Positions 66 to 18,551 of a stretch of 20,871 bases of DNA are shown piece after piece. The stretch is from Promethearchaeota archaeon (lineage in GTDB: Archaea > Asgardarchaeota > Lokiarchaeia > Sigyniarchaeales > SOKP01), in the NCBI GenBank assembly GCA_019058295.1, contig JAHPZI010000013.1:1-20871 (forward strand), given 5' to 3'. Under the pieces are notes generated by a model. It had not been told where the DNA came from, made no database searches, and saw nothing but the letters and a program-made list of their open reading frames with translations. A program made the translations under genes and the position numbers. The stretch's first letter is position 1. Each line of letters starts with the position of its first letter.

Positions 66-3000
66 TTACTCACTTTTGCCCTTCCCCTCATCGAAATAGT
101 TATCATTATTAAGAACATATTCCGATTTTTCTAACTCTTTTATAGATTTATCATACGATTTTTTAAATTTCGTAAAAAATCCTTCTGGAAGACTAGTCAG
201 CTTGTATAGTATTAGATCCCTATCTTCTTTATTCCTAAATATTTTTTCTAAAACCATCTTAATTTCTTCTGGATTTTGACCAGATAGCTTTAGATTATTT
301 ATTGTTAAATGTTTATTTAAAAATTTTTCCTTCGCTTGCAACTTAATTTTTTCTGGAAGTTTTTTCTTCAGTTTAGGTTGTTCCTTTTTTTTACGGATAG
401 TAACATAAGTAGAACCAGCAGCAATACCACTTACAGAAGCGATACCTATGAATATTATGATTATGATTATTATTATTCCATTTTTGTCATCGTTATCATC
501 ATCATCGTCATCATCATCAACAGGTGTTATATCAGGACCTGTGTCTATATCCACCAATTCTACTATAAGTGATTTTGTGTTCATAATATTCCCTGCAAAA
601 TCAAATGTATAAAATGAGATATTGTATTGACCAGGATCATAGTCACATAAGTTAAAAGGCATAGTATAGACAGTCCAATCTGAATCGTTAATTTTATACA
701 TAATTGCAAATACCCCAGAGCCAAATCCATCATCAGCTATTAGTATAAAAATAGTTGTAATGTTTACTTTATTAAATTCAAAATATGCTATAAAAATAAT
801 CCAAGAGATTGGGGCTTCGATATCCAACAATTCTACTATAATTGAGTTAATTTTCTCAAAATGTCCTAATAAATCGAATGCATAAAACGAGATATTGTAT
901 TGACCTGGAGCATACCCAGATAAGTCAAAAGGTGCATTATATTCAATCCAACCTGAATCATTAATTTTATACATAATTGCAGATACCCCAGAGCCGAGTC
1001 CATCATCAGCTGATAATGTAAAAAGAGTAGTACTATTTACTTTATTATCTTCTTTATGTGGTGTAAATGAAATGGATGAGTTTGGCGAATTAATGTCTAT
1101 TGAAAAATGTCTCATATCAGATTGATACATCGTTCCAAGCGAATCGTTACCAAAGACTTGTATTGTATGAGCTCCCTCCGCTGGCATAGGAATATATTTA
1201 TTTCCTGAGATTGTTTTATTTTCTTGCCCATCCAATGAATATCCTATCCAATCAAGAGTAATCTCACTATTAAAGCTGAGCAGTAAGCCTTCTTCTTTGT
1301 TATCTCCAATATTGTAATCTGGATCCCAGGAATATCCAAGAGCATCAATATACATATTCATACCACTCGATGAAAGACAATTCTTTACATGAATTTGATT
1401 AACTGATGGATATGCACCTCTACATCCAAATGTACCTTTATCTACATCATCGAGATAGACTCTCATTGTATCCTCAGCCAATCCAAGATAAGGATCAGCA
1501 CCAGTCATCCTAAAATCTACTCTTACATGATACCATCTATCGCTCTCAGCACCAGTTAAAATAGTATAGTGAGTACCATTGTTAACTTTTATGTCACCCT
1601 CATAAAATCTAATCATTAATGGCCATGAATACGTACCGGGGGGATTAAAATCATAATAAAGCTCATAATTGGCGTATTGGGTTGCATCATCGGTTCTCAT
1701 ATAAAATTCTACCGTTCCCGTTGGTTGCCCCCCATCGGTAAAAGTTTGTATGCTTCTTCTCTCTAAACTATCTGCTTTATACATACCATAGACTTTTTTA
1801 TGCCCTCCAATATTTTCATATACTCCATATTGACTAGGTTGCCAATGAGTCCACCCCGAGGGAGTCACACCAGAACCAGTGGGATCATTTTCAAATCCAT
1901 AAGTAGCAGGATAATACCCCATTCCTGTGTAGGTTTTATTTTCTGGAGTTATTATATTTAGGAATGGATTAGAACTTTTATTAATAGTAAAATACCTCAC
2001 ATCAGATTGAACCATTGTTCCAAGAGTGTCTTCTCCAAAGACTTGGATTGTATGAAGTCCATCTGCTGGCATAGGAATTGTTTTATTTCCTGAGATTGTT
2101 TTATTTTCTTGCCCGTCCAATGAATATCCTATCCAATCAAGAGCAGTATCACTATTAAAGCTGACCAATAATCCTTTCTCTTTGTTATCTCCTATATTGT
2201 AATTTGGATCCCATGAATATCCAATAGCATCAACCCAGTAATAGTATCCAATATCATTGTATGCTGATTTAATGCGTAATGTGTTAATATTAGATTGATT
2301 ACTACTAAAACGATAATCTCCATAATACTCATTATCTATATACAAATGATATTTATATTGAGAAAGCCCCTGATACCCACCGGCTGCTCTGCATTCAAAA
2401 TCTATTCTTATATGATACCACGTATTAATCTCAATAGATCTAGTATTGTTATATGATGATGGCCCATCATAAGCTTCAATATAGTTTTGATAAGCATAAA
2501 TATGAATAACGTTAGTATCTCCTTGTCTTAAACGAATAATTGAATTCTTTGATGTATCTGAATATCTTGCCCATAATTCAATTGTTCCATATGTTTGAGC
2601 AGTAAATACGTTATCTGCAACTGCTGAGCCAGAAGTAGTACCATCATAAAGTTGCATCACCTTGTTGTGCCCATCTTGTGAGGCAATAACTTTCGATTCA
2701 CATGAAGAATGCCCAACATCGATCCAACCATCTGGGAATGAATCATCATTATCGTTTTCAAATCCAAAAGAGGCGGGATAATAGCCGCTCATCGGTGCCG
2801 TATATGTTTTGTTTTCAGGAGTTATTATATTTAGGAATGGATTAGAACTTGTAGAACTTGTATTAATTGTAAAATACCTCACATCAGATTGAACCATCGC
2901 TCCAAGAGTGTCTTCTCCAAAGACTTGGATTGTATGAAGTCCATCTGCTGGCATAGGAATTGTTTTATTTCCTGAGATTGTTTTATTTTCTTGCCCGTCC

Positions 3001-3986
3001 AATGAATATCCCATCCAATCAAGAGCAGTATCACTATTAAAGCTGAGCAGTAAGCCTTCTTCTTTGTTATCGCCAATTTGATAATTATCTTCTAAGCCCG
3101 TAATACCAATTGCATCCACGTATTCCCTAATTGTATATTGACTTTCTGATGAGGTCATTCTATAAAAACATGGACCACCTGTAGGATGATCGTCTTCAAA
3201 ATTTAAAATCGCTGAGGTATAAACTAAGATACCATCTTCATCGTAAACCCTAAATCTCCACTGATTTGCACCTAAACCCGCATAGCCTCCATCGCACGAA
3301 ATATCTATTGAATATCGATACCATCGATTGTATGTTTGGTCAATTCCTGAATCATAATCCGTTGCCCCATCCCAATATCGTATATCAGGGTTACCACTTG
3401 CGGACCATTTATACCATTGAAAGCGAGCAATCCATCCTAAGTCACCCTTTATTCCAAAGAAACTCCTATAAAATGCTCCAGAATCTTTATTAATTAAATT
3501 ATAGAATTCAATCGTACAATTTCTTGCATCAGTTGCTCCAGATTGTAGAAAGTATGCTGAAATCCAAGTTGTTGAACTACTTGAGTAATCTTTTAATTCA
3601 ATAACTTTATCGTGTCTATTTCCAACGGCATCTGTTTTATAAGAAACAACCTGTGCCCCGCATTTTGAAGGTTCCGGGGAAGTTCCACCTAGTTTATATA
3701 TATAATCAGAACGTAGGCTGCCATCAGCAACATCTTCAAATCCGTGGCTTCCAAGATAATAGCCGCTCATAGGTGCTGTGTAGGTATCATTCTCAGGAGT
3801 AGTAATATTGATCTCTGTACCGCTCGTTTTTGGCAATTTAAATACATCCGTATTAATTTCATCAAAGTCATCGCCATTAGAGTTAAGATCAATCGGAGTC
3901 ATTGAATTAAAGATAATAGTTGTTAAGAATAATCCTATGAGCACCGAAATTAAGATAAAGTCTCGTTTTCTAATGTTTTTTTTCAT
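66..3986 (-). CDS. Large type-I membrane/cell-surface protein: 3 x (Ig-like frame + inserted beta-rich lectin/ConA-like domain), 2 x OmpL47-type Ig-like domains, poly-Asp linker, TM helix, basic cytoplasmic tail
   Basis: Basic N-terminus plus hydrophobic signal/anchor (FILISVLIGLFLTTIIF). Three ~294-aa units (xPENxTY...YY...GFE...LDWxGYSLDGQENKTISGN). Two repeats of ADDGxGSGVxAIMYKINDSxW...PGQYNISFY. D-rich run, then a GIIIIIIIIFIG TM helix. Many N-x-S/T sequons. ATG at 3986 is preferred over GTG 3998 because GTGA fits as the SD. Fold names are inferred. Confidence 0.85.
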   Translation of the reverse strand: MKKNIRKRDFILISVLIGLFLTTIIFNSMTPIDLNSNGDDFDEINTDVFKLPKTSGTEINITTPENDTYTAPMSGYYLGSHGFEDVADGSLRSDYIYKLGGTSPEPSKCGAQVVSYKTDAVGNRHDKVIELKDYSSSSTTWISAYFLQSGATDARNCTIEFYNLINKDSGAFYRSFFGIKGDLGWIARFQWYKWSASGNPDIRYWDGATDYDSGIDQTYNRWYRYSIDISCDGGYAGLGANQWRFRVYDEDGILVYTSAILNFEDDHPTGGPCFYRMTSSESQYTIREYVDAIGITGLEDNYQIGDNKEEGLLLSFNSDTALDWMGYSLDGQENKTISGNKTIPMPADGLHTIQVFGEDTLGAMVQSDVRYFTINTSSTSSNPFLNIITPENKTYTAPMSGYYPASFGFENDNDDSFPDGWIDVGHSSCESKVIASQDGHNKVMQLYDGTTSGSAVADNVFTAQTYGTIELWARYSDTSKNSIIRLRQGDTNVIHIYAYQNYIEAYDGPSSYNNTRSIEINTWYHIRIDFECRAAGGYQGLSQYKYHLYIDNEYYGDYRFSSNQSNINTLRIKSAYNDIGYYYWVDAIGYSWDPNYNIGDNKEKGLLVSFNSDTALDWIGYSLDGQENKTISGNKTIPMPADGLHTIQVFGEDTLGTMVQSDVRYFTINKSSNPFLNIITPENKTYTGMGYYPATYGFENDPTGSGVTPSGWTHWQPSQYGVYENIGGHKKVYGMYKADSLERRSIQTFTDGGQPTGTVEFYMRTDDATQYANYELYYDFNPPGTYSWPLMIRFYEGDIKVNNGTHYTILTGAESDRWYHVRVDFRMTGADPYLGLAEDTMRVYLDDVDKGTFGCRGAYPSVNQIHVKNCLSSSGMNMYIDALGYSWDPDYNIGDNKEEGLLLSFNSEITLDWIGYSLDGQENKTISGNKYIPMPAEGAHTIQVFGNDSLGTMYQSDMRHFSIDINSPNSSISFTPHKEDNKVNSTTLFTLSADDGLGSGVSAIMYKINDSGWIEYNAPFDLSGYAPGQYNISFYAFDLLGHFEKINSIIVELLDIEAPISWIIFIAYFEFNKVNITTIFILIADDGFGSGVFAIMYKINDSDWTVYTMPFNLCDYDPGQYNISFYTFDFAGNIMNTKSLIVELVDIDTGPDITPVDDDDDDDDNDDKNGIIIIIIIIFIGIASVSGIAAGSTYVTIRKKKEQPKLKKKLPEKIKLQAKEKFLNKHLTINNLKLSGQNPEEIKMVLEKIFRNKEDRDLILYKLTSLPEGFFTKFKKSYDKSIKELEKSEYVLNNDNYFDEGKGKSE
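450..520. repeat. Imperfect trinucleotide tracts encoding poly-Ile (TM) and poly-Asp
   Basis: (TCA/TCG)n and (TTA/TGA)n runs on the + strand, translating on - as DDDDDDDDNDD and IIIIIIII. Confidence 0.85.
1100..3075. repeat. Three intragenic direct repeats of the constant segment (~1100-1305, ~1948-2190, ~2821-3075), period ~882 bp
   Basis: 1987-2164 and 2869-3046 match over 178 bp with 3 mismatches by manual comparison. 1264-1304 is identical to 3031-3071. Confidence 0.95.
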
Positions 3987-4130
3987 TTTTTTAATCACAT
4001 TTTTGTATAGTAAATTTTTATCTATTCAACAATAAAGTGATCATTTCATTTAAAATAGTAAGGTAGGATTTTTTACTACTAAAAATATAGTAATATTTAT
4101 TAAATAAATTTTGTACAAAATCATAAAGAT

Positions 4131-12283: not shown

Positions 12284-13036
12284 ATGACTGACCTTGGATC
12301 TAAATATTCCGAGATTAAAAGCTTTTTATCAATCCCCGACGACCGATTTGATTTGGAGGAAACTATAAACGCAACATTTGAATCGGAATCGGAGGATAAA
12401 AAATTATATGTCCTAGGTAAAGTTATAAATTTTATAACACATTTTGCTATGTTTAAAGAAATAAAACCTTTCATGAATTCTGTTTTTATTTGTATTAAAA
12501 AGACTTTAGAAATAAAAACGCAAAATTTAGGAGACTATGATGAATTATTAATAAAAAATTCACTTATGAGATTTGTCCAAGAGTATATAACATATTCTAA
12601 TTTATCACAAAAAGAGGAAATCCTTAATTTCATTGCCCGCTCATTTGAGAAATTGCAACTACAACCTTTAATCATCAATCTTGGTTTATTACTTAAGCCA
12701 ATGTATTCAGATAATGATTATCTCAACAAAATAAAGGATTATGAAGAAATTGAAGTCACATATATCTTAAACGATGAAAATGAGGTAAAAATAAAGAAAG
12801 AAATTGATAAATGGCTTGAAACTCAAGAACTTACTTTAGAGAATCAAAACGCTACAAGGGAACGGTTACTAGAAAAATATGATCAACTAGTTGGTGAATA
12901 TAACCTTTCAAAAGAGTCCAAATCATATCAGAAATTAATGAAGGAAGTTGAGGAAATGCTTGCAATGCGACTTACTGTTATGAGTTTAATGGAGTCTATA
13001 GATGAGTCATTTGAACCTATTCCAATTAATAAATAA
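12284..13036 (+). CDS. Hypothetical acidic, largely alpha-helical protein
   Basis: 250-aa ORF with normal codon usage. TATA-like TTATATAA at ~12250. No recognised motif. Confidence 0.8.
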   Translation: MTDLGSKYSEIKSFLSIPDDRFDLEETINATFESESEDKKLYVLGKVINFITHFAMFKEIKPFMNSVFICIKKTLEIKTQNLGDYDELLIKNSLMRFVQEYITYSNLSQKEEILNFIARSFEKLQLQPLIINLGLLLKPMYSDNDYLNKIKDYEEIEVTYILNDENEVKIKKEIDKWLETQELTLENQNATRERLLEKYDQLVGEYNLSKESKSYQKLMKEVEEMLAMRLTVMSLMESIDESFEPIPINK

Positions 13037-13163
13037 GCATTTGGAAAGATATATTGCTTTACTCTATTTTTTATAAAATTCTTTGTTTATAAGAAAATTA
13101 AAATATCTAAAGTTTTATAATTATCTTTAGAAAAAAATTAATATTTTTTTAAAAGTGATTATT

Positions 13164-14381
13164 ATGGAAGAAAAAGAAAAACCATTAGATCCAGAAGAAA
13201 TCGAAAAACAAAAGAAAATTGTAGAAGATCTATACAAGCGAAAAAAAGAAGAGACAGAACAATATTTAAAAACTACTGAAGAACAAAGAAAGAAAACTTT
13301 TGAAGAAAGTAAATCACAAATAGAAAAATCTGTTGGTGAGAAGGCATTCTTAAGTTTAAAACAAAAAGAGAAAACTGCTGAATTGAAAAAACTGAAACCC
13401 GATATGGAAAAATCTGCCGAGGCAATTAACCCTACTATTTCCGAAAGAGCTTATCTCACTGAAAGAAAAAAAGAGAAAGATGCTGAACGTATGGGTTTAA
13501 AACCAAAGATATTGGGAACAGGGCAAACTATAAGTAAATCAGTAAGTGAGAAGGCTTTTTTGATTGAGCAACGAAGATTAAGTGAAAAACAGCGAAAAGA
13601 ATTGAAGCCAGATAGAGAAAAATCAGCACAAGCTATACAAGGTTCTATTTCAGAAAAAGCATTCATGATTGAAAAACAGAAAGAAAGATCCGCTCAACTA
13701 AAAGGATTAAAGCCAGATATGAGTAAATCGGCGGAATCCATAAGTAAATCAATCGGAGAAAAAGCTTATCTTATTGAGAAGAAAAAAGAGAAAGATATTG
13801 AACGAATGAGCTTGAAACCGAGGATAATGGCTACTGGGCATACTATAAGTAAATCAGTGAATGAGAAGGCTTTTTTGATAGAGCAAAGAAAATTAAGTGA
13901 AAAACAACGAAAGGAATTGAAGCCAGATATAGAAAAATCGGCACAAGCTATACAAGGTTCTATTTCAGAAAAAGCATTCATGATTGAAAAGCAGAAAGAA
14001 AGATCCGCTCAACTAAAAGAATTAAAACCAGATATAGGAAAATCAACTGAGGCAATCAGCAAATCTATAAGTGATAAAGCGTTTTTTATTGAGAAACAGA
14101 AGGAGAAAGACGCTCAATTGAAAGGAATAAAACCTGATAAAGAGAAATCAGCACAAGCTATACAAGGTTCTATTTCAGAAAAAGCTTTCATGATCGAAAA
14201 GCAAAGAGAGAAGAACGCTCAAATAAAAGAATTAAAACCAAATATCGAAGGAATAGGTGAAAAACTCGAATCTGAAATTGAAAAAATTGAACAGAAGAAA
14301 ATCGGAAGTTCATCTGATGAGAGTAAAACTGATACAGAAAAATGGTTGGAACAACAAAAAAAAATCAGGAAAGATAATTAA
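13164..14381 (+). CDS. Lys/Glu-rich protein of nine tandem 35-aa repeats (nebulin-module-like)
   Basis: Consensus KPDxEKSAxAIxxSISEKAFxIEKQKEKxAQxKEL, with no indels between units. ATG 13164 is preceded by a GTGA SD-like motif. Confidence 0.9.
   Translation: MEEKEKPLDPEEIEKQKKIVEDLYKRKKEETEQYLKTTEEQRKKTFEESKSQIEKSVGEKAFLSLKQKEKTAELKKLKPDMEKSAEAINPTISERAYLTERKKEKDAERMGLKPKILGTGQTISKSVSEKAFLIEQRRLSEKQRKELKPDREKSAQAIQGSISEKAFMIEKQKERSAQLKGLKPDMSKSAESISKSIGEKAYLIEKKKEKDIERMSLKPRIMATGHTISKSVNEKAFLIEQRKLSEKQRKELKPDIEKSAQAIQGSISEKAFMIEKQKERSAQLKELKPDIGKSTEAISKSISDKAFFIEKQKEKDAQLKGIKPDKEKSAQAIQGSISEKAFMIEKQREKNAQIKELKPNIEGIGEKLESEIEKIEQKKIGSSSDESKTDTEKWLEQQKKIRKDN
13290..14234 (+). repeat. 9 x 105-bp tandem coding repeat with 315-bp higher-order duplication
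   Basis: KP dipeptides recur every 35 codons from 13395. The block aaatc(a/g)gcacaagctatacaaggttctatttcagaaaaagc occurs at ~13620, ~13935 and ~14145. Antisense shadow ORFs are duplicated at a 315-bp offset. Confidence 0.95.
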
Positions 14382-14446: not shown

Positions 14447-14962
14447 TTACATATCCTTGTTGAATGAAATTAAGGAATTTAAGTTTAGATTTCTTAAACG
14501 AGTTTTATATTCTAAAATTTTTGGTTCAATATATCCCTTGAAACCGTTTATTTCGTTTTCAAATCTTTCATAAAAATCTTTCATAATTTCTTGGATTATT
14601 TCTCTTTCAATTTGGAGATTTGTTTTTTTAGAAATTCCTATACAAAGTAATCTTCCCCTCTTTTCATAAAGTATTCTTGTTTTTTTAAAATTTACTTCTT
14701 GAATTTCTTCGTCGTTATTGTTTTTTATTTCTTTTATAAACATATTTAATGCGTTTAAAAAACCACTAATTAAATCTTCCCTATTTTTATATATCCCTGA
14801 GTTTATACCCGCGCTTTCTGAATATCTATTACTTAAAAGTAAGGATCCTGATTGGCTATCTACAAAATAAATCGCATGAAATCTATTTTGATTGAACTCT
14901 AATCCTTCCAAATTAAATCCAAAATTCCGTTTTATTGAACCATTTTTCCATTTTAAAGACAT
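14447..14962 (-). CDS. Stand-alone longin-like domain protein (Asgard eukaryotic-signature type)
   Basis: Beta-beta-alpha-beta-beta-beta-alpha pattern: HAIYFVDSQSGSLLL, DLISGFLNALNMFIKEI, IQEVNF, ILYEK, LLCIGIS, IIQEIMKDFYERF. Confidence 0.75.
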   Translation of the reverse strand: MSLKWKNGSIKRNFGFNLEGLEFNQNRFHAIYFVDSQSGSLLLSNRYSESAGINSGIYKNREDLISGFLNALNMFIKEIKNNNDEEIQEVNFKKTRILYEKRGRLLCIGISKKTNLQIEREIIQEIMKDFYERFENEINGFKGYIEPKILEYKTRLRNLNLNSLISFNKDM

Positions 14963-15160
14963 AATTTTCAGCTTATTTTTATAAACTCTCCATTAAAAGA
15001 AAAACATTCAATTTTCATTAAAAATACATAAAATATCTCTGTGATATTTCAATAACATAAGGACATTATTTTTCTCTATCAAACCAAATACAAAAAAATA
15101 AAAATTAATATAATTTATTTAAAAATTAGCTTTAAAGCACAATGAAAAATATTGATTATT

Positions 15161-15619
15161 ATGGGAACTGAAAGTGATAAAGGCAATGTAAAGAATAAAA
15201 TCTCTTTAGGTTTGATAGTGACAAAAGATAAATTAAACAATTCTATTTTCCCTTCAGAAATTTTAAAGGAAATTTTAGATGCTCCTTATTATTTGTTAAT
15301 TTTCATTTCTCGCGAAGATTTGGTTAAAGTGAGCTGTTTTCCTACAAAAAGTAAGGATATAAAAAAGGTTTTAATAAAATTAACCGAATTTTCACCGGAA
15401 CCCGTGAAAGGCATACCTACTGTTTTAAGAGAACTTGATTTAAGTAAGAGTATTTTACATACTACAGGATTATGCTACGAAATGGAAAAATGTTGTTATG
15501 AGACTTATATTAATTGCGAAGATTTAGATAGTAATAAAATTGAAATTCTTAAAGAGAGGCTCAAGGCTGTTGCGAAAGTAATTGATGTAGAGGTTGAAGA
15601 TATTCGTGTTCATAACTAA
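15161..15619 (+). CDS. Hypothetical protein with ACT-like (ferredoxin-fold) C-terminal domain
   Basis: C-terminal beta-alpha-beta-beta-alpha-beta pattern ending LKERLKAVAKVIDVEVEDI. Fold is inferred by eye. Confidence 0.65.
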   Translation: MGTESDKGNVKNKISLGLIVTKDKLNNSIFPSEILKEILDAPYYLLIFISREDLVKVSCFPTKSKDIKKVLIKLTEFSPEPVKGIPTVLRELDLSKSILHTTGLCYEMEKCCYETYINCEDLDSNKIEILKERLKAVAKVIDVEVEDIRVHN

Positions 15620-15649
15620 TAAATTTAACACAAATTAATCTTGATAATT

Positions 15650-15859
15650 ATGGCCGATAAAAAAAAACCACCTCCTCCAATAATGCCTCCTAGCAGCGTT
15701 AAAATTACAGAGAATTTTTGTCTTTTCCATAAAGGAGATATTGAAGGGGATATTTATCAATGCAACACTTGTAAGACAAAATATTGTCTTGAATGCGCAA
15801 AAAAGGCGAAAGCAGAAGGAAAAAAATGCATTAAATGCAAGCAGTTAATTTTTATTTAA
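15650..15859 (+). CDS. Small RING-like zinc finger protein with N-terminal polyproline
   Basis: KKKPPPPIMPP followed by C-x2-H-x10-C-x2-C-x4-C-x2-C-x10-C-x2-C (8 ligands). Confidence 0.8.
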   Translation: MADKKKPPPPIMPPSSVKITENFCLFHKGDIEGDIYQCNTCKTKYCLECAKKAKAEGKKCIKCKQLIFI

Positions 15860-16810: not shown

Positions 16811-16844
16811 AATAACTAGTTAATAATTTTCAAAGTTGAATTTA

Positions 16845-18551
16845 ATGACAGAGTATGAGATTGTACGGGAGACTATGTCGCTGTGTCCAGAATGCTTGAC
16901 CCAAATACCCGCTCAATTCTATGTAGATCCCTCAAATAACTGGGTAATGCTTCGAAAAACATGTCCAGATCATGGTGAGTTCAAAGATAAAATTTCAATT
17001 GATGCCGATGAATATAAGTGGCATATGAACTTCACGGAAGAAATCGGTTCGATGTCAGGTGAAAGTATCTCAACTAAACCTTGTGAAGTGTCTTCAGGGA
17101 TTAAGAAAACCGAGAAAGGGTGCCCTTATGATTGTGGTATTTGTGAGAATCATAAAAGTGCCCCCTGTATATGTTTAATAGATGTTACTAATCGGTGTAA
17201 TCTTGCTTGTCCAATTTGTTTCGCAAACGCTTCGGCAAAAGGATATGTTGTAGAACCCTCCTTTGATGAAATCATACGAATTATGGAACATTTTAGATCT
17301 ATGAAACCAACTCCTGCTGTTTTGCTTCAATTTGCCGGTGGAGAGCCAACACTTCGAGACGATCTTCCTGATATAACCAGAAAAGGTAAAGAGATGGGAT
17401 TTCTTGATATTATGGTCTCAACAAATGGGATAAGAATTGCTAAAAATATTGATTATCTTCAACAACTGAAAGATGCGGGACTTGACACGGTATATTTGCA
17501 GTTTGATGCTACTGACGCTCCTGAAGTATGGAAAAAAGTAAGAGGAGTTAACCTATGGCCAATCAAAAAAAAAGCAGTTGAAAACATTCGAAAAGTTGGC
17601 GGAATTACTCTTATGTTAGTCCCAGTTATAGCAAAAGGAGTAAATGACAGTCAAGTTGGTCCTATTATGGAATTTGCGAAGGAAAATAAAGATATATGCG
17701 GTGGCGTTGTTTTCCAACCAGTTTCTCTGTGTGGTCGTATTAGTTTCGAAGAATTAATGGATTTGAGATATACCACATCAGATTTAAAAGTTGATATTAA
17801 TAAAGCAACAAATAATATGATTACAAAATTTTATCCGCTTGCAACATCTGCTAAATTCACGGGATTACTAGCATGGTTTGATGACGTACCGAATTGGTCA
17901 AGTACAAGCCACCACGATTGTGGCTTTGCTACCATAGGTATCATAAATAAAAATAACGAGTGGGAGCCCATCGAAAATTATGTTGAGGTAGAAGGACTGC
18001 TCAGATGGTCTAATAAAGTCTATGATATGGTTCAATCAAGACAAGTACCTAAGCCTACAGGTCTCTTAGGCAATATTGACTTATCACAATACGGGAAGTT
18101 GGCTGAAACAGTTGGAAATTTTATCGACGACATAACTAGTCTCGGATATAGGCAGATGATGAAAGCATACTTTTTTGCTGGTCTTGTTAAATATGTTAAA
18201 ATAAAAAAGGTCTTAGATAGTACATTTGCAAAGTCCTTAAGCCAATTAATATTAGCCCCAAATATGAGAACTGCGGGGAACTTTCTGCTTTCGGGCAATA
18301 TTTTAGTTTCTGCGATGCATTTTCAAGACGCCTATAATTTTGACCTTAATAGGATAAAATCATGTCTTGTACACTACGGTATTATTGACCCAGACAACCC
18401 AAACAAAGTTTTGGAGGTTCCATTTTGTGCAATGAACACCGTGCATCGTGAAAGATTGGAGCTTGCTCATGTAAAGAAAGGGCTTCAAACAGAGAAACCA
18501 GAAGTAATTACCGAGCGAATTTCAAAATATATAGAAACTATCGAAAAATAA
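16845..18551 (+). CDS. tes: Tetraether lipid synthase Tes / GDGT-MAS (MJ0619 family radical SAM)
   Basis: N-terminal SLCPEC...CPDHG metal site, GCPYDCGICENH cluster, DVTNRCNLACPICFANA, GGEPT, VYLQFD, FQPVS, HDCG, MHFQDAYNFD...CLVHY and PFC motifs. Confidence 0.9.
   Translation: MTEYEIVRETMSLCPECLTQIPAQFYVDPSNNWVMLRKTCPDHGEFKDKISIDADEYKWHMNFTEEIGSMSGESISTKPCEVSSGIKKTEKGCPYDCGICENHKSAPCICLIDVTNRCNLACPICFANASAKGYVVEPSFDEIIRIMEHFRSMKPTPAVLLQFAGGEPTLRDDLPDITRKGKEMGFLDIMVSTNGIRIAKNIDYLQQLKDAGLDTVYLQFDATDAPEVWKKVRGVNLWPIKKKAVENIRKVGGITLMLVPVIAKGVNDSQVGPIMEFAKENKDICGGVVFQPVSLCGRISFEELMDLRYTTSDLKVDINKATNNMITKFYPLATSAKFTGLLAWFDDVPNWSSTSHHDCGFATIGIINKNNEWEPIENYVEVEGLLRWSNKVYDMVQSRQVPKPTGLLGNIDLSQYGKLAETVGNFIDDITSLGYRQMMKAYFFAGLVKYVKIKKVLDSTFAKSLSQLILAPNMRTAGNFLLSGNILVSAMHFQDAYNFDLNRIKSCLVHYGIIDPDNPNKVLEVPFCAMNTVHRERLELAHVKKGLQTEKPEVITERISKYIETIEK

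Follow-up and report, generated by a model that had tools for sequence, protein, structure and literature searches.

Genes and Features of the Locus

The window, by which we mean the whole 20,871-nt stretch of Promethearchaeota DNA analyzed here, carries a gene for a tandem-repeat protein (P0001) and several neighboring genes, which are listed with their coordinates in Table 1. The genome that it comes from amounts to 3.2 Mb in 30 contigs and is 79% complete. The closest public record to the P0001 locus is a Promethearchaeota (Lokiarchaeota) MAG with 99% identity.

Table 1. Features of the window, with positions counted from its first nucleotide
Feature	Positions	Strand	Basis or remark
1310-aa ORF, weak Big_13 (bacterial Ig-like) match only	66-3998	-	overlaps tandem repeat
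250-aa protein, weak DUF445 match	12284-13036	+	upstream of repeat gene
AT-rich intergenic spacer with TATA-like runs	13037-13163	+	sequence only
Repeat-protein CDS (P0001, 405 aa, stop codon included)	13164-14381	+	open frame, no internal stops
Conserved N-terminal helical domain, aa 1-42, continuing into unit 0	13164-13289	+	conservation, AlphaFold2
Nine indel-free 35-aa units, aa 43-357	13290-14234	+	register, consensus, AlphaFold2
Recent 315-nt (three-unit) duplication within the array	13443-14110	+	TRF, unit identities
C-terminal tail: degenerate tenth unit (KPNIEGIGEK...EKIEQKK) and short conserved W-containing motif	14235-14378	+	homolog conservation
171-aa protein	14447-14962	-	weak match to first longin domain of FUZ/MON1/HPS1, E 0.001, below cut-off
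155-aa protein, no known family	15152-15619	+	paralog-rich across the order
72-aa Cys-rich zinc-finger protein, PPPPIMPP leader, no Pfam family	15641-15859	+	conserved in 34 fetched loci
571-aa radical SAM protein with N-terminal zinc ribbon	16836-18551	+	NCBIfam Tes model

The start of the repeat gene was fixed at 13164 because the ATG at this position coincides with the conserved N-terminus of the homologs. P0001 and a 99%-identical relative differ by 17 synonymous and 6 non-synonymous codon changes, and the gene is under purifying selection. Conservation in >100 genomes, the synonymous bias of the codon changes and the conserved start together show that the gene is real. The spacer upstream may contain the repeat gene's own promoter. 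The protein begins with MEEKEKP, which is acidic and unlike a signal peptide (by inspection), and its low hydrophobic content would leave little room for a membrane span.

Several of the neighboring genes showed features of their own. The 250-aa protein has a 46% identical paralog on another contig (G000:C2:169931-170644, minus strand), ∼6.5 kb from the Lokiactin gene; a functional tie of this paralog to Lokiactin was considered and rejected, with MutL, POR subunits and other unrelated metabolic genes lying between the two. The 171-aa protein looks like a longin/roadblock-type protein of Asgard archaea, and its gene stays beside those for the 250-aa and 155-aa proteins even where the repeat gene is absent. 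The 155-aa protein was found as one ortholog plus several paralogs in 40/41 genomes of the order sampled, and some paralogs sit inside ∼300-aa proteins; judged by these matches, it belongs to an unnamed, order-wide small-domain family. The 571-aa protein scored 424.5 bits against the NCBIfam model of the tetraether lipid synthase Tes, below the 450-bit cut-off, and its gene is syntenic across the family. The 1310-aa ORF, which overlaps a 273-nt tandem repeat at 547-1047 (81% matches), probably encodes a repetitive surface protein.

In the taxonomic family of the window (f1), the gene order is DUF362, 250-aa gene, repeat gene, longin-like gene, 155-aa gene, zinc-finger gene, transmembrane gene and Tes-like radical SAM gene. 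This block persists in genomes without the repeat gene, and relatives of the repeat gene in two sister families (f2 and f4) lie in unrelated neighborhoods; synteny therefore gives no partner for the repeat protein. As operon partners, the 250-aa gene upstream of the repeat gene and the longin-like and 155-aa genes on its downstream side were rejected, since their arrangement is kept where the repeat gene is absent. The repeat gene showed no linkage to actin, profilin or gelsolin genes.

Architecture of the Repeat Array

P0001 was cut into 35-residue pieces starting at position 13290, and the nine units so obtained are exactly in register. The first two residues are KK in unit 0 and KP in units 1-8, and the central motif [IV]-x-[ED]-[KR]-A-[FY] is present in 9/9 units. 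A preliminary description of the locus, made from the sequence alone, had reported nine indel-free 35-residue units, eight of them starting with KP and all with a motif of the ISERAY/VSEKAF type, and each of these observations was confirmed. BLOSUM62 self-scores of the protein were 1.62, 1.63, and 2.07 at lags of 35, 70, and 105 residues and ∼0 at other lags; the repeat is far beyond chance. TRF detected a 315-nt period within the array with 84-89% matches and 0% indels, and we concluded from it that three units were recently duplicated. The identities between P0001 units were 83% for the pair 2/5, 94% for 3/6, and 69% for 1/4.

In the members of the family the array lies between an N-terminal segment of ∼55 aa, which is conserved, and a short tail at the C-terminus. 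The N-terminal segment is the best-conserved part across family f1 and links the relatives in f2 and f4. The tail motif K-P-D-I-K-G-I-x-E-K-I-E is kept in homologs, and an EKWL motif in the tail is common to genus-level relatives and the protein P0002.

To obtain spacing statistics for the family, homologous ORFs were taken from fetched loci (54 distinct proteins). The motif-to-motif spacing was exactly 35 residues in 428/454 cases and 70 in 16/454; deviant spacings were few, with 32 occurring five times and 38 twice. Copy number ranged from 7 to 12 units, and the lengths of the homologs fell mostly into classes ∼35 aa apart (∼385, 405, 419, 442, 455, and 490 aa). The consensus of 487 distinct units was K-P-D-I-E-K-T-G-E-A-I-E-K-S-I-G-E-K-A-F-R-I-E-K-Q-R-E-x-D-E-Q-R-K-E-L. 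Conservation reached 99% for I11 and K18, 96% for F20, and 89% for E17 and E27, of which only the I11 and E27 figures are independent, because the motif used to pick units constrained positions 15 and 17-20 (K/R at 18, F/Y at 20, and a restricted set at 17). Pro2 occurs in 73% of the units. At position 16 the residues are G, S, D and A, Ser making up 23%; Phe accounts for 96% of position 20 and Tyr for the other 4%; position 21 carries R, M or L and has Lys in ≤2%. In the unit alignment the conserved signature is thus I-x3-[IV]-x-E-K-A-F followed by a charged stretch. The P...S[ED]xx[YF] signature given in the preliminary description stood in part: the aromatic residue at position 20 is general (as Phe, with Tyr at 4%), and the low frequency of Ser16 (23%) and the 73% of Pro2 across the family make the rest partly particular to this window.

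Units resemble each other more within one protein than between orthologs. It follows that units are duplicated and lost within the array and are interchangeable, with neither positional orthology nor a conserved super-repeat. Recent duplication alone partly explains the uniformity of the period within one protein; the exclusion of indels, which extends to the K-P-D linker, points to a constraint on length over mere recent descent.

Phyletic Distribution and Sister Relatives

The repeat family is confined to one Lokiarchaeial (Promethearchaeia) family, with rare relatives in two sister families. The gene was detected in 109/134 genomes of f1, 1/14 of f2, and 2/4 of f4, and a sample of 225 other Asgard genomes from across the phylum yielded none. 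Two genera of f1 lack it, g3 (0/7 genomes) and g9 (0/2). In the g3 genome G011 the flanking genes adjoin at the syntenic site, leaving no room for the repeat gene, and coordinates suggest the same arrangement in G023 (g3) and G017 (g9). The repeat gene is thus dispensable in two genera of its own family.

The relative in f2 has a strict period of 37 aa and is without the Pro, the relatives in f4 have a period of ∼40-41 aa, and a 37-aa period also occurs in some metagenomic representatives. These sister periods indicate that the period is fixed within the lineage and is not universal. The expectation that homologs keep the 35-aa period accordingly holds inside the family (428/454 spacings) and fails in the sister relatives (37 and 40-41 aa). 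Variable repeat length among homologs, which had been named beforehand as a finding that would speak against a nebulin-like ruler, is seen in these sister families.

Among 54 related loci from a species-level genome collection, 53 carry Asgard or 'uncultured archaeon' MAG titles and one lies on a contig labeled as bacterial. This contig (L028, DATKTW010000179.1, 'Candidatus Nanopelagicaceae bacterium') contains the full Lokiarchaeial synteny block including the repeat gene, and was probably mis-binned in the public MAG. Two short metagenomic representatives carry the N-terminal head and two units, followed by TPR repeats in P0012 and by unrelated sequence in P0009; they may be rare fusions or chimeric assemblies, and no conclusion drawn here rests on them.

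Database and Literature Searches

Searches of P0001 with hmmscan against Pfam-A at E≤10 gave no Nebulin, Thymosin, WH2, TPR or PPR match, and a search against NCBIfam gave nothing meaningful. A sequence profile search of the PDB returned a chance match only (E 0.44). Foldseek found no match in the PDB for a 4-unit model, and the ESM Atlas yielded no usable match for either the full-length protein or the N-terminus. A word-indexed protein search with P0001 or a 4-unit alignment returned nothing, the known family included, and we suspect that K/E-rich words swamped the index. We found no family, structure or paper describing the repeat protein in the literature and databases searched, and the Pfam, NCBIfam and PDB profile searches matched it to no named family.

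Predicted Structure and Composition

AlphaFold2 prediction of the full-length protein (29-row alignment) gave an all-helical model with a mean pLDDT of 61 and a pTM of 0.19. Four units predicted with a 120-row alignment (pLDDT 71, pTM 0.22) formed long helices without packing. Most units formed a single helix of ∼30 residues, as a rule with a break at K-P-D, and the N-terminal helix (residues 10-77) was predicted with a pLDDT of ∼90. The AlphaFold2 confidence being modest, the protein may still adopt an oligomeric or partner-induced fold. A two-copy complex prediction for residues 1-217 scored 0.00; it was run without controls, gives no verdict and counts neither way on self-association.

The protein consists of 47% charged and 24% strongly hydrophobic residues. 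An α-solenoid of the TPR, PPR or TALE type was rejected, as there was no Pfam match, about one helix per unit and a pTM of 0.19-0.22; the preliminary description had likewise judged the hydrophobic content too low for a TPR/PPR solenoid. It had also stated that a confident solenoid or coiled-coil model would speak against the filament-ruler reading, and AlphaFold2 returned no compact fold (pTM ∼0.2). We regard a cytoplasmic, lineage-specific, elongated, all-α tandem-repeat protein as the best explanation of what the gene encodes.

A Multivalent Helical Rod as the Proposed Mechanism

To the observed architecture, strict period, unit turnover, lack of a compact predicted fold and phyletic range we add a reading that we favor tentatively, with somewhat less than even confidence: a multivalent helical rod showing the same binding patch every ∼5 nm to a putative repetitive partner. 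What we infer from the features above is that the protein is rod-shaped, that it binds multivalently and what kind of partner it has. The conserved N-terminal helix of ∼55 aa would form a fixed head, which probably anchors the rod, and behind it would follow 7-12 interchangeable 35-aa modules. Each module would be a ∼30-residue helix with a hydrophobic/invariant patch (I4, I11, I15, E17, K18, A19, F20, and I22). After the patch (positions 4-22) would come an E/K/R spacer at positions 23-34 with the fixed polar residues E23, K24, R26, E27, D29, and R32, and most modules would end at the K-P-D break.

Such a protein would not be folded on itself and would make a stiff rod of ∼5 nm per module and ∼50-60 nm in total, offering an identical, regularly spaced patch to a candidate partner such as an oligomeric array or a polymer lattice. 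Copy number would set the reach of the rod, and unequal recombination would alter this number between species. Lokiactin would be one candidate partner and is not the favored one. A conserved, abundant-looking rod with a rigid ∼5-nm module would be the kind of molecule that decorates or spaces periodic polymers, and knowing its partner could bring to light a cytoskeletal or scaffolding system specific to the lineage. Work on Asgard archaea addresses the origin of the eukaryote-like cytoskeleton. Whether or not actin is the partner, the family offers a clean natural example of a length-quantized helical repeat, in which species differ by whole 35-aa steps, and should be useful for studying the constancy of repeat length and the evolution of molecular rulers.

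Alternative Explanations

The main rival of the rod reading is self-assembly in the form of a non-canonical coiled coil, a reading that we consider rather unlikely. The protein would be rich in coiled coil, its helices pairing into dimers or filaments, and would form a cytoskeletal element of its own like crescentin, FilP and Scy. Thirty-five residues equal five heptads and would keep the units in phase in a left-handed coiled coil; the deviant spacings of 32 and 38 are steps of -3/+3, like stutters and stammers; and the predicted long helices partly run through the K-P boundaries. The hydrophobicity spectrum shows a strong harmonic at 3.5 residues, which would suit heptads, yet the strongest harmonic is at 3.89 residues. 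Canonical coiled coils are mostly apolar at the a/d positions, whereas the best of the seven registers of P0001 had only 46% apolar and 30% charged residues there, and a canonical heptad coiled coil was rejected. In each of the two best registers the invariant K18 falls in the core, and in one of them so do the conserved D29 and R32. Pro at 73% of the unit starts and the 37-aa period of the f2 relative, which is not a multiple of 7, also speak against pairing of this kind.

The preliminary description proposed that the protein is a nebulin-like ruler on actin filaments, homologous to or convergent with nebulin, and listed a HMMER comparison with the Pfam Nebulin profile as a check. The homology found no support: the Nebulin profile PF00880, searched at E≤10 against the whole genome in six frames, gave two chance-level matches on other contigs and none at the ORF, and residues like those of SDxxYK are not conserved. 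P0001 is therefore not a member of the nebulin family. The Thymosin profile (PF01290) had no match in the genome at E≤10, and the one match of the WH2 profile (PF02205) was at chance level and lay away from the ORF, on a different contig. Thymosin β-4 carries K-P-D-M, recalling the K-P-D-M start of a unit; a β-thymosin/WH2 assignment was rejected, as the two profiles gave no match and the aromatic residue lies at a different distance.

A convergent Lokiactin side-binder is a separate matter. In such a protein one 35-aa helix would bind each actin subunit of a long-pitch strand, and would stabilize or measure the filament. We judge this unlikely, and slightly less likely still in its specific form, an independently evolved nebulin-like side-binder whose copy number sets the length of the stabilized segment. 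That the host encodes actin was correctly anticipated: the actin search, which covered the window's own genome only, found a 367-aa Lokiactin, encoded on the minus strand at L065:1483-2586, and one actin-related protein. The strict period, the same motif in every unit and the lack of a compact fold would also suit a side-binder. The α-helix rises by 1.5 Å per residue, giving 35 × 1.5 Å = 52.5 Å for one unit. The geometry fits the Lokiactin filament, in which subunits rise by 27.9 Å, or 2 × 27.9 Å = 55.8 Å along one strand (PMC9834061). Nebulin repeats bind actin 1:1 through SDxxYK (PMC9140763).

Against a Lokiactin side-binder stand the Nebulin, Thymosin and WH2 profiles without a match, and the sister-family periods of 37 and 40-41 aa. 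Lokiactin is reported to be highly conserved in Asgard archaea, whereas the repeat family was not found in the 225 other Asgard genomes. The repeat gene is unlinked to the actin gene, and two genera of f1 lack it at the syntenic site. Nebulin is uniformly basic, whereas the net charge of the orthologs extends from -24 to +24. The known Asgard actin regulators so far are profilins and gelsolins, and co-immunoprecipitation of Lokiactin in L. ossiferum, which may or may not carry the repeat family, brought down profilin, gelsolins and an ARF GTPase (PMC13716822). The balance of the indirect evidence is against a specific actin ruler. If true, the Lokiactin side-binder would be the first such filament ruler or stabilizer in a prokaryote, and one Lokiarchaeial lineage would have elaborated its actin cytoskeleton with proteins lacking a eukaryotic counterpart.

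It seems improbable that the units act as surface-active or protective hydrophilic helices, that is, in membrane or lipid binding or as a stress protectant, in the manner of exchangeable apolipoproteins, perilipins and LEA proteins. Tandem helices punctuated by Pro, a very hydrophilic K/E/S/Q-rich composition and a variable copy number are all compatible with this role. A Tes-like tetraether lipid synthase gene is located 2.5 kb downstream, but it is syntenic whether or not the repeat gene is present. At 100 degrees the unit had a hydrophobic moment of 0.138, the same as the mean of shuffled units (0.14), 10% of shuffles reached the observed moment in the N-terminal half of the unit, and there was no 11-residue periodicity (lag-11 BLOSUM62 self-score ∼0); amphipathic repeats of the apolipoprotein, perilipin or LEA type were rejected on the moment and the period. 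Invariant polar residues at fixed positions would also be unexpected for non-specific surface binding.

A basic repeat protein that binds nucleic acids is very improbable: the window's protein has a pI of 9.46 and a net charge of +20 (+24 in the repeat region), but orthologs range in pI from 5.3 to 9.5 and down to a net charge of -24, and no nucleic-acid-binding family matched in Pfam or NCBIfam. With the solenoid, the canonical coiled coil and the amphipathic helix all fitting poorly, the extended helical rod remains.

Comparison With Known Systems

We compared the lokiarchaeal units with five kinds of helical repeat or filament proteins. Exchangeable apolipoproteins, built of Pro-punctuated 11/22-mer amphipathic helices, share with them tandem helices that each begin with Pro. 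Unlike these, the lokiarchaeal units have no significant amphipathic moment, and their period is 35, not 11 or 22. Crescentin, FilP and Scy are long helical prokaryotic proteins as well, some with unusual long sequence periods; the lokiarchaeal protein differs in its a/d positions (46% apolar), in the Pro at most unit boundaries and in having no homology to them.

The ER/K single α-helix (SAH) spacers of myosin VI/X and caldesmon recall residues 23-34 of the unit, which are E/K/R-rich with many opposite-charge pairs at i/i+3 and i/i+4, and AlphaFold2 gave lone helices without tertiary contacts in the lokiarchaeal units. To our knowledge, neither fixed positions nor a strict period occur in SAH domains, whereas the lokiarchaeal units conserve their charged positions one by one, in alternation with a hydrophobic patch.

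In gas vesicles, GvpC spans the lattice of GvpA with helical repeats of 33 residues. Like the lokiarchaeal protein, it is a prokaryotic protein of non-globular helical tandem repeats whose copy number varies between species, and its repeat length matches a periodic protein lattice; the likeness lies in this design. A search for gas-vesicle protein families gave no match in the window's genome, and none in any control genome either.

The simple repeats of nebulin (PF00880; nebulin, nebulette, LASP and N-RAP) are likewise tandem modules of ∼35 residues, each essentially one helix without a globular fold. Further parallels are a higher-order repeat, of three units in P0001, and a module length near the subunit spacing along one actin strand. 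The differences lie in the sequence and its history. SDxxYK is absent from the lokiarchaeal units, in which I-x3-[IV]-x-E-K-A-F is conserved instead; the three-unit super-repeat of P0001 is a recent lineage-specific duplication (84-89% DNA identity) and not a conserved feature; charge is not conserved in the lokiarchaeal family; and the sister clades have periods of 37 and ∼40-41 residues. Overall, the likeness of the protein to nebulin is one of design and not of ancestry.
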